Both the position numbers and the translations under genes were made by a program. From contig MU004239.1 of the NCBI GenBank assembly GCA_010405405.1, positions 682,001-746,000 of the forward strand: a DNA stretch of 64,000 nt. Reading direction: 5' to 3'. Positions 30,019 to 50,178 of this stretch are shown here, one piece after another. The stretch comes from Microthyrium microscopicum. Lineage: Eukaryota. Numbering within the stretch: position 1 is the stretch's first letter; every line of letters starts with the position of its first letter. The notes below the pieces were generated by a model. The model did no database searches, had not been told where the DNA came from, and saw only the letters and a list, made by a program, of their open reading frames with translations.

Positions 30019-30938
30019 GCTCGAATCTAAGGTTTGACAATAAGGAATAGTTTGAGTTCTGATTGCGGTATATGCACAATATAGTGGACTTTGCGGGGAA
30101 GTTATAGCTTGTATAAGATGGTTCACGATCCGGGAAACTTGACCCGAAAGATGCAGGTGGTCATTACTCGCTATGGCTGCTAAACAGCAATCAGACTCGC
30201 GTGGCTTGCATCTCCTACTACCTGACGTTGACTAGTCCAATCATTGATAAGTTCGTTCTCGATTTTCGATGCCGTGGGAGCCGATAGTATCTCTTAGGTG
30301 TCACAAGAATAGGCTGGGTTGGCAATTCGGGAACATGGAGATGAACTGAGAGTTTAAGGAAGTTGTGAACAGAAATGGAAAATTTTATCAACAATCAGCT
30401 TGTTATAGTATTCTTGAACTGTGTTCCCAACCTTCAATAGATATTTCCGGAATTTGCTTAATGTTGACGAATCAATTCGCTCAATGTGCAATTCAGCCTG
30501 ATGAGTGATATGTACCTCAGCCTTATTCACGAGCTCCATCTTCCAGATGACTTACATCCCTTCTAGATCGCTCGATATGTGGTGGCACCATATGTGATAG
30601 AACAACACATTATCTGTTCGTGGTTCAGGTTTCGCTTTATATTCTACTTTATCCTGGAATGAAAAGCTAGAAAATTTGACAGTACCAGCCACCAGATTGT
30701 AACTGGATGCCTATTTCTTGATTGTGGTCAATATCTCTATCTCGTCGTTAGACAGGAAGCTTCTGCCACTTCGGGTCTGGTGAAATGTGATTGGTCTTCC
30801 AAGTACCTTCATGCATAAGGCGCCGACTCGCCTCTGCATTATGCAGCGAGTTGATGCGGCTGATGGTGGGGTATAGAGGTTTTGCACTTTGTCTGCAATC
30901 GATTTGTGATTGCTGAAGTTCGAACGACTATCTCCATC

Positions 30939-33555
30939 ATGTCAAGTGGGCCAGATATCACCAGCGAGTCTCCTCGCAGCAATGAGGATGACCTGTATTC
31001 GAGGGACGCTCCAGACAACAGAGCTACCGCACATGCCCCTGCCGAACCGCAAGCTGTCGACAATCTCGCAGATTTTATGATCAGCCAACATGGCATACAT
31101 TCATCGGTTCACGATAATGCAGCGCGCCATGCCCAGCTCAAAGCGAAGCTACTCGCAAATACTGCACCAACAAATCCTTTGTACGTCGACCAACTTGGTA
31201 CCAACGGATTGTCTCCATTGCATATCGCGATAAAACACCGACGAATGGGTTGCATCGAACTACTGTTGGCACATGGTGCCAGTATGTATGTCCGCGCGAC
31301 GGGACATGATAATGTAACAGCTCTGCAATGGATCTGGGATTTTGCGCAATCCCAACAGAGTATTTACCGGAAGCACTACTTGTATGATGTCGTCCAATTT
31401 GGCGTGTTTGTAACCAAGTTTCCCAGTGAGAAGCTTTGGATAACTTCTAATCCAGAGGTTAAGGACATACCGGGCCGCGAGGATGAGAGCTCATATCGCA
31501 CGACTGTAAGCCAGCTGGAAGACGATACATTTGCCAAGTACATAAAACCATCGGGCCATATTCGTGAACGTTTGACCTGGATTCATGTCTCCTCAGGCAA
31601 TGTAAGTGAGCTCACAGAGTATAAAGATGGTGCACAAATGATGACCAAGGGCTGACCATTTTAGGGCATAATACTCGCAGTGAGCAATGAGAACAGTGCC
31701 TATGTTACGTGTGGCGTCTAGCTGACGAACGCCAGAAAGTATCAAGAGTCGTAACAGCCGCACTGAAAGACCGATTATTGAATCCGAACGATATGCCAGA
31801 CATTTTCTGTCGCGGGCCAGAAGTATCCACTACTATACCTGGGGACCCATTGTTGAGATACAAAGAACCCGTTTATCTACGGTATGACATGAAGTCCAAA
31901 CCTCCTCTCACGAGCCGTGGAATGAAATATAGTGTTATCGTAGTAAGAACCGCGTTATGCACATCATGCTCTCAGCGAACTGAATTTTGACAGTTTCCAT
32001 GCTTGGTTCTTGGAACCGTTCAGGAGAACGAAAAGAGCCGACGGAAGGCAGAGGCGATGAGTGACTCCCCGTTATCGATACCCGGCAGACCCAGCTTCAA
32101 AACCTTTATCCAGATGGAAAGAACGTTGGATGAGGCCTATTACCCGGGCCTTGGGAGAGAAATCTTGAAGTTGAGAAACAAAGACCAAGTCGTGACAAGA
32201 TCGGTGAAGTCTCAGATGTTGAGAGAACGAGGGCAAGAAACAATCAAATTATCACCTATTGTTTTGGTTCCACAGCTGTGGCTTTGGAGACTAGACGATA
32301 TTGTGGTTTCCGCCTTCCCCGAGAGGGAAAACATATCACTCTGGCATACAGAAGCTCCAAGGAGCTTGTATATGAATCCCGTTGTAGAAACTGTGTCGCC
32401 CGACCTACAATTGGGACTGATCATTGCATATCACGTCGAAGAATTCGCCAATGGATACCAGAACTTGAATGTCACGTTCCCTCCTGTTCTGAACATATTT
32501 GAGACGGAGGTAGTGTCGATTTTATCTGAAGTCGACAACTACATGAGAGTATCAAAATCGTCATTGCCGAACATTGAAGTAGAATCCGGTTTCATGCACG
32601 ACATATCAGACATTCGAGATGAACTGGCCATGATACAAGATGTCCTCAGTCAACAAGAAGATGTGCTAGCAGACCTGGTAGATGACGCGGACCCAACCAG
32701 GAATATTACGTCAGAAGAAATGTTTTGCAAGCTCATGGCCGACGGCAATGTCGATAAAGAGCATTCTCCTTCAAGTGCCCAATTCGATCAAGAAGCGGCA
32801 CTCTGGGAGAGAGTCCATCATGCTCAAAAGAGCTTGGTGCAATACCGTAAGCGAATCGAAAAGATTGATCGAGATGCTGAAAGATTGCAGCAGCTAGTTC
32901 AGAGCAAACTGGATCTAAAAAGAACCTTTGCCAGTATGCAGCAAGCCGAAACTAGTATACAAGAGGCGCGTGATAGTAAACTCCTCTCTCTGGTAGTAAT
33001 TGGTTTCACTATCGTCACTATCATTTTCACCCCTCTTTCTTTCATGGTCGGGCTTTTCGCTTTGGACATTGATCAGCTCAGTGGATTGAAGCGTTCGGAT
33101 GAAGGGGGTACTGACGTTTACTCGGGCTCAACATTGGCGGGAATATTCAGTAAGTTGGAACATCTGACACTTTCAACCAACGCCACGTTGATTCTAACAG
33201 TTTCGCAGTCGGAGTAGAGATCTTTACCCTCCTCTTTACTGTTGCCCTTGGATATGGCACCTTAGTCGGTGCAAGGATGTGGCTGAAAAGGTACGGCCAG
33301 CCCACAGGAAGTCCTGCACCAGCAGTAGACGAAGACGTGGCGAACGATGCGAATCCTCCAGATGACGACGTTGTTATTATTGGCACGGATGTCGGACCAG
33401 AAGAAGCACCTGCTAATGTCCCAAACGTGGCAGAACAGCAAGTAGCCACTGAAACTGCGGGAGCTGCAGAAGAGAGGTATACAGAGAAGTCATCTTTACG
33501 TCAACGACTCTTTGGGACGACGATAGGAAGGCACAAGCAGAACAATGCAGCTTGA
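30939..33555 (+). CDS. Ankyrin-repeat plus CorA-like Mg2+-transporter-domain protein (multi-exon)
   Basis: Ankyrin repeat GLSPLHIAIK...IELLLAHGA, then RTLDEAYYPGL...RNKDQVV, VPQLWLW, DIRDELAMI..VL..Q, and the CorA-like TM region GFTIVTIIFTPLSFMVGLFALD. Includes a 15-nt microexon at 31665-31679. Confidence 0.85.
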
Positions 33556-33607
33556 AGAAAGAAGCACAGCAAAAACTAGCCACCGCGATGTGCTGGATTT
33601 AGTCTCT

Positions 33608-34388
33608 TCAGCCGAATGCGTCCCCTCCAGGCTCGTCCAGAAGTCGACCTAGTGGTCCACATATAAGGGCTTGAGCGATTCTTGAATCATGGGCTGAATA
33701 TAAGTCTTCGTTTACGGACAGTTTGTTCCATGATACGTTGTTTAAGAATGACTTGTTTGTTGTACCGGGTGAATACTGTCCCTGACTCCCGGTCTCAACA
33801 TTCCAATCTTCAGGGGTTTGAGATAGTCCACCTGCTCTATCTCGCACAAGACTTATTTTGGTATGTAGCTTGAGAGCTGACGTGTATGTAAGAATCCTCT
33901 GGCGCAATAGAGGCAGCTCTTCTGATCTCCACGAAATCGTAAGATGTTTTTGAGCCTCTTCGAGTTCAGAAGTGCTCCGGACAATTTCTTGAAAGAGATT
34001 CTCCAGGCCCAAGACTGCTTTCAGTGAATTTACCAGAAGCGCATTCGGGTTTGTTGAGCTGAACCACTGTGCGGCTTGTGAAGACTGGTTCTCCAGCTCA
34101 GCTTCAGTGATAGCCAGTTGTGATTGAAAATCATTCAAATCAGCTGGTAGAAAGGCGCCGTCCTCATCAACGTCTTCGATAACCTCAAGTAAAGCACGGA
34201 TACTTGATATCTGAGTCCGTTAGTATCTCATCATTCCGCATAACCAGACGTTTTCGCGGTTTCGACGGGATCAGGACCTAGCTTTGGGCTGGCTCGGAAG
34301 ACCGATAAAAGATAATACTCACTCCTTCCCAGATCAGACTAATAGTTGTGGCTGAGGTGGATGTGCTCGCATCGCGGGCTAGATCCAT
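33608..34388 (-). CDS. HeLo-like (fungal STAND N-terminal-like) domain protein, paralogue A, 222 aa, C-terminus DEPGGDAFG
   Basis: Exon 1 34388-34323 (MDLARDASTSTSATTISLIWEG), intron 34322-34211 (GTGAGT..CTAAC..CAG), exon 2 34210-33608. Helical pattern ADLNDFQSQL...W....LPLLRQRILTYTSALKLHTKI. The family call is by pattern only. Confidence 0.75.
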
Positions 34389-34752
34389 CTCGGAAGGTCG
34401 TTGAGCGAGCCGTGTTTGGCACAAAGACCGTTGACAACAAGCTCCATTTTATAGATTTTATTCCGCCTGATTTCTTAATGTTAGGCAGCTTGCAAGGCAG
34501 ATGGAGAGGTTGACACGGATTTTTAGATGCACGTGAGGCCTCCGCAAATTAAGTCCAGAACCTATGGCGTATGGCGGAAGTGTTAAAAGCGGTTTGTATT
34601 CAGTACCGGTAGGTGGTTCGTAGATGAGACTTAAAGGCAGTCTTACTCGGCTCATTTGATTCGAACTGCAACTTGACCACCATTACATAAGGCTTAGGAC
34701 CAAAAATGTCTCGCTATGCGGCTCCTTCGCCGCACGGGGTTGAGCAATCGCT

Positions 34753-35556
34753 TTACCCAAATGCGTCACCTCCAGGCTCGTCTGTAACCCGGCCTGCTGT
34801 CCTGGCTGGCATGTTGCCGTAGACTTCCTCAATAGAAACTTCTTTACCGGCGATATTGACTGAGCGTGCTTCGCTTGTCGTATTGTTTGCAAGCCGCATT
34901 TGCTTTCCTCTCGGACGTGTCCACTTTCCAACGTTTTCTGTGATTTCATCTGAAGTACCCTTGATGAGGCGTATTTTGATGCGCATTTTAAGAGCCGATA
35001 GGTCCATGATTAGCTGTCCGCGCAGGATACCGAGCATTCCTGGTATCCATGACGGTGACCCCCCGAAATAAGTTGCAGTTTGATCAACAGTAAACGCGCT
35101 CCCCTTGGTTTCTCGGATCTCTTGCTCAAGGCCCAGTATTGTCCCTGGCGAGTTGGTTAGAAGACCATCCATCTTCAATGTGTTGAAGCACCACGCGCAC
35201 TGTGCATCTTGTACAGAGCGAGTTTTTAGCTCGATTTCCACAGTTGCAAGCTGCGATCGGAATGTGTCCAGATCTGCTGCTAGAGCGTCGGTGGTTTCAT
35301 CGGAATCTCTGAAGCCCGGGAGTAGTACGTGAACAGCTGATTCCTGATCATGTTAGACTTTCTATATCTCGTATATACCAACAGCTTCGTTTTTTGACAA
35401 GCCGTCCTAATTGAGCCTACAGGACTGACTGAGCGCTTGCGGCTTCCAGCTAGAGATCAAGAAATAGAGAGAACTTACTCCTTCCCATAGCAGCTCGATA
35501 AGGACAGCCGAACTTGATGTAGCCTCAACCTCTTCAGTCATGAAGGATGAATTCAT
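34753..35556 (-). CDS. HeLo-like domain protein, paralogue B, 217-222 aa, C-terminus DEPGGDAFG
   Basis: Exon 1 (ATG 35556 or 35541) to 35479 ends ...IELLWEG. Intron 35478-35344 (GTAAGT..CTAAC..CAG), exon 2 35343-34753. Collinear with paralogue A (ADLDTFRSQL, LL.NS...LGLE, SW....L..LR.....SALK...KI). Confidence 0.75.
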
Positions 35557-36032
35557 CTTAGCAGATTGCTGTACCAGCCGGTCCTGGCACACTGAATTCT
35601 GCTAATGCTCCCCATCTTATAGGTCTTATCAACTTGATCTGCCTTGCTCCTTTGATGAGGCTGTTGTCCACTCGTGACAAGGCAGATGTTGAGGCAGACA
35701 AGGCACGTCAGCCAATTGATAGATGAAGTTGGAGATGCATGCCAAGCCTCGCCCGATTCAAGTCCAAGCTCTGCTATTGATAGACAACTCTAACAAACAA
35801 CACCATTCTATCTCGTCACTGTTATCGTAACTTCAATCGCAACTGTTCTTGAATCATTTAGCAACACTGCATCAGTCAGCCTGTACGGCCAGTCATCTAA
35901 AACGACTCGCCGCCCAGACAACCACCACATACCTGTTGAACACAAGCTCCACCCCTCTCCACTTGAACCAAACACCAATCACCATCGGACAGCTTGCTGT
36001 ACATTATATTCGACTGCCAAACGACCGCAATT

Positions 36033-37531
36033 ATGGCACCCAAAGCGCTTACCGACGATGAACTCCTAGCCCAACTCCAAGGCCTCAACACCAACGACAG
36101 CAGCACCCCCAAAGCAACCAAACCAAAGCCAAACCCCTCTTCCGCCGCCGACCCTCTGGCCGCTCTCGAATCGCTCGCAGCTGCGAAACCTCTATCCCGT
36201 CCCAACACCCCCAAACTCGCCGGTGCATCTCGCCGCTCTGGTACAACCACCACCACCAATTCCACTGGCGATGCGGCGCATACGCCAACCAGCAGCGCCC
36301 GCAACAGCGAAGATCGCACACGTTCTGCAGCCCGACGCAGCGCAGAGAGCTCTACGCCACTCGCACATGAGTTGACGCCGACGAGCGAGGATGAGGTGCG
36401 GGAAGAGGAGCAGCAGAGCGGAGGAGGAGGGTGGTGGGGTGGACTGATGAGTGCGGCGAGCGCGGCGAGGAAACAGGCGGAGGCGGCAGTCAAGGAGATT
36501 CAGCGGAACGAGGAGGCGCAGAAGTGGGCGGAGCAGGTTCGTGGAGGGGCGGGAATGTTGACGAGTATTGGTATGTTGAAGACACAAACAGCTGAGAGTG
36601 GGAAAGCTAATGGAGTATGGTAGGAGGCGAGCTACGATCACGAGCACTGCCGACGTTCACGACGCTACTACATACAATTGCGCCGCCAATTTCACAGCAC
36701 GAACGGTTGCAGATCCACATAACGCATGATTTTGTTGGCTACCCAGCATTAGATCCGACTATCTATAATATCTTCAGCCGGGTCATGAACCAAGTCGAAG
36801 GTGGTGACCTGCTCGTCATCCAGCGCGGATCCGAGTCGCGAGGCCCAAGCGGTTCTTCAAACGCCGGCTGGAACGACGGGCCTTGGTGGCGTGATGGACA
36901 GAAGAAGCGCGATCTGGGAATTATCAATGGCTTATCTGAGGGCACCAAGTTGACGCGCGTAAATGCCGAGGCCTACGCACAAGAATACTTCTCCTCTCGC
37001 GGCGGATTGGAAAACGCGCACAAGCAGGCGACCGAGATTCCCAACGAGGACAATCCAGTGCGCAGCAGTGATATATTCATCGCGATCCAGGCGATTGCCG
37101 TTGAAGACGACAACACTTTGTTCCAGGTAGCTACAGCTGAAGAGAAAGATACGAGCGGTATGGTTGAGGATAAGGCGGATGAGCGCGTTTGCTTTGCTAT
37201 CTATCTGCATGATCCCGTGCACGGCATTACGTTCAGTACGGTCACCCAGTCCTTCCCTCGTAAGTGGGCCGAGTGGCTGGATGCTGAGCAGGATGTTGCT
37301 AGCGAAACGCAGTTGCCTGCTGAGATTTCTGAGATCGTGATGAATGGTGGCATTGATCCACGAGAGTGGGTGAGTGAGTGGGTAGAAGAGGCTATTGGCC
37401 TGGGTGTCGGCATCATCGCGCAGCGATATGTTGCGAAGCGCATGGGCGTGGGTGAGGGTGGTATTGGAAAGGGTAAAGCTCGACAAGCAGCTGTCGAGTC
37501 GGGCGCTGGCGAGCTCGCGCGAGCGATGTAA
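36033..37531 (+). CDS. MTC1: Maintenance of telomere capping protein 1 homologue
   Basis: GGWWGG..SAAS.A.KQAEAAVKEIQ.NEEA.KWAEQVRG | ELRSRALPTFT.LLHTIAPPISQHERLQIHITHD...VEGGDL...DPREWV.EW.E...QRYVA.RMGVGEGG. One intron at ~36571-36623. Confidence 0.88.
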
Positions 37532-47923: not shown

Positions 47924-49115
47924 TATGACGGCTCATAACGGCCACCCTGGCCACTTCACCAAAGATCGTTATTAAATTCCCGCCCAAATAATATTATTTT
48001 CCCACCCGTTTCTCTTATTTTCCCACCCTTTTCGGACTGCCATACAGTTCTATCACGATAGCTAGTTTCTAGAAGTTTTAAATGATGAACTTATAGAATA
48101 GCTTCTTCTCTATCTTTTGGCCTTTTCAGAATTCTATTACGATACCTAGTCGTGAAGTTATAGAGGATTGAAAACATAGACTAAACTAAGAAGATGAGGC
48201 CGTTAAACTGCCCTTTAAGATAAGGCTGTTAAACTGCTCCTCTTGAAAATAAGGCCTATTAACTTTACTAGGCATTTATATAATAAATAGAAGAGTTATG
48301 AAAATTCTAAAGAAGCCAAAAGATAGAGAAGAAGTTATTCTCTAAGCCTACACTTTTGAATTCTTAGTAATTAGCTATTATGAAAGAGATATATAGCAAA
48401 AGGCATAGAAGCAAAGGAAGCTACTGAAGCCTTTTCTTAATGGAAGCAACTTAGTCACTAGAATAGTAAGGAAAGCCTTAGAAAGCCGCTGATTCTAGTG
48501 AGAGGGGTGGGAATCTAAGAAAAAAGGGTGGGAAAATAATATTGTTTGGGCGGGAATTTAATAACGATCTTCACCAAAATCCAAAAACTAAAAATCTACG
48601 TGTTTACAAATTAATTATTTACACCACAAAGAGCCCAAATTTGAGGATTCTGAAGAAGCTAAATAGCAAATTGAATTTTTCTACATTTTTGCAAAGTCTA
48701 GAAATATTATATTTATATATTTTGCCGCATTTATGATGGTTGGTTATTTCTGAGATCTTTTTGCTTTTTGACAAAAAGTGGAGCTTGATGGGAATACCCT
48801 TTAAGCTTACTAAGTTAGTAGGGTCTATCCCTAAGTTAGTGAGCATAAGCGCCCCTAAATTAGCGAGTCCTTTATGCTCCAAAAATGTTAAGAAAAGATA
48901 CATATTTCTTAAATCAAAGATTCAACTTAAACAACCATAATTAAATAGACTTTTCTACCTCTTAAAAATCAAGCAAAATTCAACCTTTATTATGCATATC
49001 AAAAAACCATCAAAAACGTATTATTTGTGGTGCAAATAATTGATTTGTAAATACATAGATTTTGTACTTTTTGGTTTTGCTGAACTGGCCAGGGTGGCCG
49101 TTATGAGCCGTCATA
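47924..49115. mobile_element. Non-autonomous TIR element (MITE-like), AT-rich/RIP-like, 5-bp TSD GTTTA
   Basis: TIR TATGACGGCTCATAACGGCCACCCTGGCCA(C/G)TTCA at both ends (34/35 match), extending imperfectly to ~90 bp once the nested insert is removed. GTTTA lies at 47919-47923 and 49116-49120. Confidence 0.9.
47964..48569. mobile_element. Nested Mutator-like (MULE) non-autonomous element, 9-bp TSD TTCACCAAA
   Basis: ~65-bp TIRs GATCGTTATTAAATTCCCGCCCAAA(T/C)AATATTATTTTCCCACCC... TSD TTCACCAAA at 47955-47963 and 48570-48578. A second internal inverted-repeat pair lies at ~48040-48140 and ~48295-48398. Confidence 0.88.
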
Positions 49116-50178
49116 GTTTACATTCACTTAGCCTTGCACAACAAGAGAGTGTTCCATAACCAGTCACAGTTCATTATAACAGTATCTGCAAGTACTCAGA
49201 CGTCCATGGCTTTGGAGCAGTCTCGCCAAGGTAATAATTGATTCAATATACAGTGATGGATGTAATGAAGAGCAAGAAACATACCTAGTCTCGTCGATTC
49301 ATTACCACTTTGACGTCGGATTCATTTCCTTGATGCTGCAGCAGGATACTGGGTTCTTCATACTCTGTGTTAGCACAGCGGGAGGCTGTTTTAGAGAATG
49401 AAGTGATCAATCTGATTCCTTCTCTCATCGGCGTGACACCGTTTTAAAAAAGATTGAAAAGCTGTAAATATCGAAGCTGGCTGACACTACAGGCTCTGTG
49501 ACTCAATGCAAGGCCGATTACTGAACAATATTGTGCTAGACTTAGGCTCTGCGACGATAGCTGTGGTTTACTTGATTGGGAGGTGAGAACTTGTCCCCAT
49601 TACTTAGCACCAGATATGGTTGAGAATCTTATGATGAGAGTGCAAGAATACTAAGTGATCATTTGAGTACTTGAAAAGATGGTGTTCGACATATGGTATG
49701 ATCAGAGCACCGTTCTATCTTGTCGATCATGTATGGAGAGCTTTGGGGTGTACATTAACCCTTTCTATAGACGCATTATCCGCGGACCTTTTTCCGACCT
49801 GTTGATTCTGGAGGCGGAATTCTCGAAGGGACGCGCTTCAAATTTAAAGATCAAGCTCACCAAGCTGACTGGATTTGCAGATCTGACGATAGCATCGGGG
49901 ACAGCGATATCTCACCTCATTGGGGCGCAGTCCAATCAGAAGAGTGTAGGATTCAGCCTCTCATGGTCGCACGATCACTTATTTTCGGAGTGTAGGAGAG
50001 AATGTCGTGTTTACGTTGGGTATATAGAGGCCATACATTCTAAAATAATGGCTACAAATTTAAAACATTGTATTTGTGTGCTCAAGAGTCAGTATTCCAC
50101 ATTCTTCCAATCCACGAAGAACACATCCTCTTTGTCGACTTTTGTGAGAGAACCTACAGCTATTCAAACTCCTTCGTT

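Follow-up and report, generated by a model that had tools for sequence, protein, structure and literature searches.

A tandem pair of putative, highly divergent HeLo-like proteins with an identical C-terminal nonapeptide in Microthyrium microscopicum

Two adjacent minus-strand genes, here designated gene A and gene B, were analysed in a stretch of 64,000 nucleotides (nt) of the Microthyrium microscopicum genome (assembly GCA_010405405.1, contig MU004239.1, positions 682,001 to 746,000 of the forward strand; hereafter the window, with position 1 as its first letter). Their products, P0001 and P0002, are both 222 amino acids (aa) long and both terminate in the sequence GR-x-x-DEPGGDAFG-stop. The features of the pair were assigned by reading of the sequence, and the domain limits were taken from AlphaFold2 (AF2) models and a profile search, as follows.

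33608..34388, minus strand: gene A, encoding P0001 (222 aa), identical to an NCBI hypothetical protein of Microthyrium microscopicum
34388..34323, minus strand: exon 1 of gene A
34322..34211, minus strand: intron of gene A
34210..33611, minus strand: exon 2 of gene A
33610..33608, minus strand: stop codon TGA of gene A
33947..34388, minus strand: predicted N-terminal four-helix-bundle domain of A (residues ~1-148), intron included
33611..33637, minus strand: DEPGGDAFG codons of gene A, with the conserved G-R codons at 33644..33649
34753..35556, minus strand: gene B, encoding P0002 (222 aa), identical to an NCBI hypothetical protein of Microthyrium microscopicum
35556..35479, minus strand: exon 1 of gene B
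35478..35344, minus strand: intron of gene B
35343..34756, minus strand: exon 2 of gene B
34755..34753, minus strand: stop codon TAA of gene B
34921..35556, minus strand: predicted N-terminal four-helix-bundle domain of B (residues ~1-166), intron included
34756..34782, minus strand: DEPGGDAFG codons of gene B, with the conserved G-R codons at 34789..34794

Each gene contains one GT..AG intron of phase 0 directly after the residues W-E-G, of 112 nt in gene A (GTGAGT...CTAAC...CAG) and 135 nt in gene B (GTAAGT...CTAAC...CAG), with CTAAC as the branch site in both, and the spliced translations match the database entries P0001 and P0002 letter for letter. The exon-2 products share 68 of 204 residues by BLASTP (33%, E 4e-30), and the full proteins are 35-36% identical in a MAFFT alignment. 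The initial annotation, made from the letters alone, had described two same-strand genes of about 222 aa with one intron after W-E-G, aligning end to end at a quarter to a third identity as diverged tandem paralogues; this gene structure, the alignment and the relationship were all borne out by the reading of the sequence and by the database proteins. From this sequence comparison, genes A and B are old tandem duplicates coding for one type of free-standing protein. A family hidden Markov model run against all 880 open reading frames (ORFs) of at least 40 aa in the window matched only the exons of A and B, and thus no third paralogue was found in the window.

The nonapeptide is the longest run of identity between A and B, the next longest runs being of 4 residues, and a run of at least 9 had a probability of 0.008 when the identity marks (68 identities over 191 aligned columns) were permuted. 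When back-translated into a DNA pattern, the motif gave 2 matches in the window, against 0.00 expected from 100 shuffles, even with 2 mismatches allowed, and in six-frame translation no other motif-like site in the window was nearer than 4 mismatches of 9. The codons differ between the two genes as GGG/GGT, TTC/TTT and GGC/GGG, and as GGT CGA versus GGC CGG at G-R, and the stop codons are TGA and TAA. Among the 11 conserved tail codons (G-R and motif), the third position thus differs in 5 and none of the 22 first and second positions differs; identical residues are encoded by the same codon at 6 of 11 sites in the tail and at 21 of 54 elsewhere in the gene. Because the synonymous sites of the motif have diverged as much as those of the rest of the gene, the tail would be as old as the remainder, and the comparison points to selection on the motif as a peptide rather than to recent DNA copying or a conversion tract. 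The shared ending and every codon detail had been given exactly in the initial annotation, which had likewise proposed constraint on the peptide, and these statements hold.

The tail was compared with the PP core and with the HRAM and sigma consensus sequences. The nonapeptide comprises 3 acidic residues and 1 proline, contains no N or Q, and lacks the PP core G-phi-Q-phi-G as quoted in the excerpts of PMC7885112. By composition the tail is acidic and Pro/Gly-rich and hence not amyloid-like, in agreement with the earlier view that it does not resemble an N/Q/G-rich amyloid motif.

The nonapeptide closes a C-terminal extension of about 75 residues that is predicted to be mostly disordered, with an AF2 predicted local distance difference test (pLDDT) value largely <50. 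Within this extension A and B resemble each other about as much as elsewhere, through W158, G163, Q165, T172-T173 and a (L/V)-S-(V/I)-x-E-(D/E)-(L/V)-Y patch followed by G-R, and perfect identity is confined to the terminal nonapeptide. Neither tail nor motif was found in the 17 relatives of the pair described below, which match only profile positions ~8-160 and not the last ~75 residues; on these alignments the tail is specific to this lineage. A pattern search for the motif across proteins had been proposed at the outset. It showed the motif to be unique to the pair in the window, and an orthologue with the tail was not found in the libraries searched. In a word-index search with tail residues 178-222, proteins of 122-389 aa gave 2 candidates, of which only the query was reported, and proteins of 390-2000 aa gave 7 candidates, none at E <= 10, a threshold that a 9-residue match could not reach in either search; paralogue B itself was not returned, and such searches say little. 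An atlas search with the tail alone gave no usable match. A scan of Joint Genome Institute (JGI) metagenome contigs with the back-translated motif yielded 20 loci, all bacterial-looking with a GC content of 0.50-0.78. These were rejected as chance-like. At 19 of the loci the motif is internal to a longer, unrelated open frame instead of C-terminal, and at one (L017) the frame has just 14 residues; many of the frames resemble bacterial genes read in antisense, and none of the 20 loci was a relative.

The family of the N-terminal region was examined by hmmsearch with a profile of A and B against 1.84 billion representatives. Twenty proteins were obtained at E <= 1e-3, namely the pair, 17 fungal-type relatives (E 2e-19 for the best, P0003, to 9e-4) and P0018, a repetitive coiled-coil protein matched in three short stretches and taken as spurious. 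The relatives share the signature MDPxSIxG...GIRDIDET...AF.F.L...WW...LL.NA.KTFS.LE...HLRLRI.TYT, which has the look of the fungal 'N-terminal domain of STAND proteins' (STAND, signal transduction ATPases with numerous domains). Among the matches listed, PF17111 was reached at E <= 1 by 6 of the 17, including P0019 (33.6 bits) and P0003 (24.3 bits), against a gathering cut-off of 27.2 bits, and SesA (PF17107; cut-off 26.3 bits) was matched below its cut-off by P0004 (23.2 bits), P0017 (20.6 bits) and P0019 (16.0 bits). UniRef gives P0009, from Eremomyces bilateralis, the name 'Fungal N-terminal domain-containing protein', and P0005 (915 aa, from a metagenome-assembled genome of Geoglossum umbratile) carries the domain (E 3.8e-11 over ~140 residues) followed by WD40 repeats; the Pfam rows listed for P0005 number at least 25 and are of WD40 type. 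Language-model look-alikes of A were Ascomycota clusters with PigL_N and SesA (0.93-0.94, 175-188 shared features). PF17111, now named PigL_N, was formerly Helo_like_N, and corresponds to the HeLo-like family of the literature (PMC9815663, in excerpt). Because significantly homologous relatives reach PF17111, we place the N-terminal ~145 aa of A and B, by transitive remote homology, as a very divergent branch of the HeLo-like (PF17111; SesA-related) superfamily. A weak PaaX-like match (E 0.18-0.22, 12 bits) was regarded as a chance hit, and weak matches to DUF4298, seen in 9 relatives, were put down to coiled-coil bias.

Six of the 17 relatives (P0003, P0006, P0011, P0013, P0014 and P0016 in alignment A3) end at the same column with '...AM'. 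Such ends fit an intron-blind gene caller that reads AT|GTAAGT or AT|GTGAGT as ATG plus stop, and each of these six sequences is probably the first exon of a longer protein of the kind seen in P0005. In most of the relatives the domain stands at the start of a longer protein.

AF2 models of both proteins were built with an alignment of 18 sequences, and gave mean pLDDT values of 60.1 and 62.3, with block means in the bundle mostly in the 60s-70s (50-82), that is, moderate confidence. Helices were predicted at residues 6-34, 38-62, 68-74, 77-101 and 106-148 of A (four long ones, not counting 68-74) and at 7-37, 43-68, 81-118 and 125-166 of B, and both models therefore contain an N-terminal all-helical four-helix core of ~130-150 residues, as in PF17111. 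These predictions support a four-helix bundle in A and B. A small hairpin at residues 187-196 in the model of B was of low confidence. The best VIA-align match of both models was the up-down four-helix bundle 6n63_A (Z 11.1 and 12.4). A profile search of solved-structure sequences gave nothing relevant, the best match being a designed three-helix bundle (E 0.0023). The prediction of an A+B complex scored 0.31 against a mark of 0.34 and was used neither way.

RNA data were taken from one public run, X1, labelled 'RNA?' as a guess, and were examined over 33000..36200. Genes A and B are covered in this run by a single contig of 3625 nt starting at 35551. The contig removes exactly the predicted 135-nt intron of gene B, continues without a further joint through the tail of B, the 360-nt spacer and the whole of gene A, and also skips 33060..33115, which has GT..AG ends on the minus strand. 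Because two minus-strand introns are removed, we infer that spliced RNA went into the contig. This supports the gene model of B, its production as a spliced RNA, and the presence of both tails in RNA; contigs drop rare forms, and one contig is no proof of a single molecule. Past gene A the contig runs antisense into the convergent gene for an Ank/CorA-like protein, listed below; the skipped segment 33060..33115 sits in a coding exon of that gene, and the plus-strand intron of the gene itself (33150..33207) is kept. Over 33000..35551 the contig looks like a long read-through or antisense RNA.

The window has 47 stop-to-stop ORFs of 150 aa or more. Of these, 37 were scanned with Pfam, as was one ORF of 133 aa; the 10 ORFs left out overlap longer ones. 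Among the ORFs scanned there was no NACHT, NB-ARC or other domain of the NOD-like receptor (NLR) type. The genes of the window code for two aspartyl proteases, a proline dehydrogenase, a large tetratricopeptide repeat (TPR) protein, a cytochrome P450 (P450), ankyrin proteins, a CorA-like membrane protein, DUF5427 and DUF7223 proteins, a permease, a hydrolase and a peptidyl-tRNA hydrolase, with the Ank/CorA-like and DUF5427 genes flanking the pair. The flanking genes and the upstream elements of A and B are as follows.

30864..33555, plus strand: convergent neighbour, apparently one gene, with ankyrin repeats at 30864..31655 and a weak CorA-like part at 31991..33555
35967..37531, plus strand: gene for a DUF5427 protein, in two frames (35967..36623 and 36611..37531), presumably split by an intron
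34493..34503, minus strand: 11-mer CATCTGCCTTG upstream of gene A, 105-115 nt before the ATG, with TATA-like TATAAAA at 34447..34453
35678..35688, minus strand: 11-mer CATCTGCCTTG upstream of gene B, 122-132 nt before the ATG, with TATA-like TATAAG at 35616..35621

In the CorA-like part of the convergent gene, a transmembrane-like stretch follows the intron at 33150..33207, and the stop codon lies ~50 nt from that of gene A. The DUF5427 gene is divergent from gene B, ~400 nt upstream of it, and a second X1 contig covers 35881 onward. The GC content drops to 0.38 at 48001..50000, against 0.45-0.54 elsewhere in the window.

The 11-mer CATCTGCCTTG occurs twice in the window, once upstream of each gene of the pair, and 0.03 occurrences were expected. 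Global DNA alignment of the 300-nt upstream regions of A and B scored 7.5, against a mean of 2.8 and a maximum of 9.5 in shuffles; the similarity of the promoters therefore rests on short blocks and not on overall identity. The shared blocks fit a common regulation of A and B, and CATCTGCCTTG may be a regulatory site retained since the duplication.

The pair was compared with the fungal cell-death effectors HELLP, CgHELLP and HELLF (Podospora anserina, Chaetomium globosum), which have HeLo-like domains of PF17111 and which are likewise free-standing proteins; at ~220-280 aa, they begin with a helical bundle, continue into a flexible region and close with a short element conserved at the C-terminus (PMC7885112, in excerpt). 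In HELLP and HELLF the tails are N/Q/G-rich PP or HRAM motifs that form amyloids, and the neighbouring gene encodes an NLR whose N-terminus carries the counterpart. In A and B the tails end in an acidic Pro/Gly 9-mer, no NLR gene was found in the scanned ORFs of the 64 kb, and the bundle has diverged too far to be recognised by the Pfam model. HET-S/HET-s of Podospora anserina (HeLo, PF14479) also has a bundle followed by a C-terminal switch region, which in HET-S comprises two 21-residue amyloid repeats (PMC4518210, in excerpt), but HeLo was not among the matches listed in the sequence and fold searches with A and B. For the fungal HeLo and HeLo-like effectors studied so far, activation is by amyloid templating, with the template supplied by an NLR next to them. 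Measured against the signalosomes HET-S/NWD2, HELLF/FNT1 and HELLP/PNT1, the pair fails three defining features, namely an adjacent NLR (in the ORFs scanned), an amyloid-type motif and a direct match to the family model. The PF17111/SesA domains of fungal STAND/NLR-like proteins such as P0005 are homologous to the N-terminal region of A and B over ~140 residues; proteins of this type fuse the domain to a long receptor-type body, whereas A and B stand alone with a unique tail. The four long antiparallel helices predicted for A and B recall MLKL of mammalian necroptosis, to whose four-helix bundle HeLo-like domains are reported to be homologous (PMC9815663 and PMC7885112, both in excerpt), although no MLKL chain was among the fold matches listed for either model. 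We assign A and B to a known superfamily as new, divergent members, set apart by a private tail as yet unexplained. Short linear motifs at the C-terminus are read by repeat domains in other systems, as EEVD-COOH is by TPR co-chaperones and PTS1 by PEX5. The likeness of the pair to these lies in an invariant acidic peptide at the free C-terminus of otherwise divergent proteins, and is a pure analogy between unrelated sequences.

The explanation that we favour, to which we give about an even chance, is that A and B are a divergent HeLo-like tandem pair with a lineage-specific tail, whose nonapeptide is a short linear motif that docks to a common folded partner. The terminal nonapeptide, together with the G-R four residues upstream, would form the motif at the free C-terminus, and would be read by one folded partner common to A and B, which could regulate, localise or switch on the bundle. 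The motif would thereby take the role that the C-terminal amyloid motif has in HET-S, HELLF and HELLP, through simple docking instead of amyloid templating, and the bundle might then act on membranes, by analogy with HeLo-like effectors.

Several observations weigh against this explanation. Only 1 of the 17 relatives (P0019) is above the Pfam cut-off for PF17111, and of the pair itself the protein of gene A gave no match to PF17111, SesA or HeLo even at E <= 10, and that of gene B none at E <= 1 (exon 2 alone, none at E <= 10). Where the relatives have the N-terminal MDPxSIxG followed by a hydrophobic stretch, A and B have residues that are polar and in part acidic, which weakens the analogy with membrane insertion. 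Foldseek gave 0 matches at E <= 1e-3 (the coiled-coil domains of NRC2/NRC3 at E 3.3 were regarded as noise), the VIA-align rows are generic bundles with Z values within the range of the tool for any helical model, none of MLKL, HET-S, HeLo and RPW8 was among the fold-search matches listed, and neither model specifically matched another cell-death bundle. The X1 contig retains the intron of gene A and thus does not show the spliced form of A or production of its protein. The motif was found in two proteins of one genome, and 'conserved' refers to a single comparison of paralogues. Of the HeLo-like nature proposed in the initial annotation, what stands is that relatives reach PF17111 and that AF2 predicts four-helix bundles with moderate confidence; a match of the pair itself to PF17111, SesA or HeLo, and a specific fold match to MLKL or HeLo in the AlphaFold check, were not obtained.

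In a rather unlikely alternative, A and B are not HeLo-like in function and belong to a generic helical-bundle or coiled-coil family, for instance of scaffolds, with the C-terminus as a structural or targeting end-piece. The lack of a Pfam match for the pair, the generic structural matches, the polar N-terminus and the ordinary neighbour genes (P450, Ank/CorA-like, DUF5427) all agree with such a family. Against it speak the significant matches of the A+B profile to proteins that either hit PF17111 or SesA or take their name from the domain, and the language-model neighbours from these same families (PigL_N, SesA). It is unlikely, if conceivable for a motif that lies at the extreme C-terminus and ends in Gly, that the tail is an intramolecular latch, a processing signal (e.g. 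for cleavage after the Arg of G-R) or a C-terminal degron that sets the half-life. The G-R four residues upstream has been kept through synonymous changes, a linker predicted to be disordered lies between bundle and motif, and gasdermins offer a parallel as pore-forming death effectors that are freed by protease removal of an inhibitory C-terminal piece. The AF2 tail is nevertheless not confidently docked on the bundle (pLDDT largely <50), no protease gene adjoins the pair, the two aspartyl protease ORFs being >24 kb away, and we know of no such precedent among HeLo-like proteins.

A classical NLR-effector pair, in which the tails would serve as templates of prion-like or amyloid type and an NLR encoded elsewhere in the genome would carry the counterpart at its N-terminus, is very unlikely. 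HET-S, HELLF and HELLP do share the layout of A and B, with a bundle joined through a flexible region to a short conserved element at the C-terminus (PMC7885112 and PMC9815663, in excerpt), and the low-confidence hairpin at 187-196 in the model of B could be taken in its favour. Known pairs are adjacent genes according to the excerpts of PMC7885112, however, and the scanned ORFs of the 64-kb window contain no NLR-type domain; there is no further copy of the motif in the window, and the conserved piece is only 9 residues long, with 3 acidic residues and a proline, no N/Q and no G-phi-Q-phi-G. A cause at the level of DNA or RNA, either a short gene-conversion tract or a 3' regulatory element overlapping the stop codon, could account for the 14 consecutive identical bases GACGAGCCTGGAGG between two genes whose aligned DNA shows ~60% identity elsewhere. 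Such a cause is most improbable, as each of the 5 differences among the 11 conserved codons is a synonymous change at the third position, the share of identical codons (6/11) stands beside 21/54 elsewhere, the stop codons differ, and similarity fades directly after them, the 150 nt downstream not aligning.

Beyond the favoured explanation of a motif that docks to a common folded partner lies a bolder form of it, which we consider a long shot. DEPGGDAFG would then be a new, non-amyloid C-terminal signalling motif of HeLo-like death effectors. By binding DEPGGDAFG-COOH directly, a receptor encoded elsewhere (an NLR-like or repeat protein) would activate both bundle proteins, which would be under common regulation and perhaps transcribed together.

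The entries of both 'hypothetical proteins' can now name them as divergent HeLo-like members of the PF17111 superfamily, placed there by remote homology, and can note the lineage-specific tail. For cataloguers of fungal cell-death modules the pair, as two paralogues of one saprobic fungus, is a lead and not a result. A stand-alone pair with a short acidic terminal peptide would hint that this class of effectors may also be controllable by docking, by a latch or by processing, and a motif read by a receptor, if true, would give fungal HeLo-like effectors a second kind of connection to their sensors.

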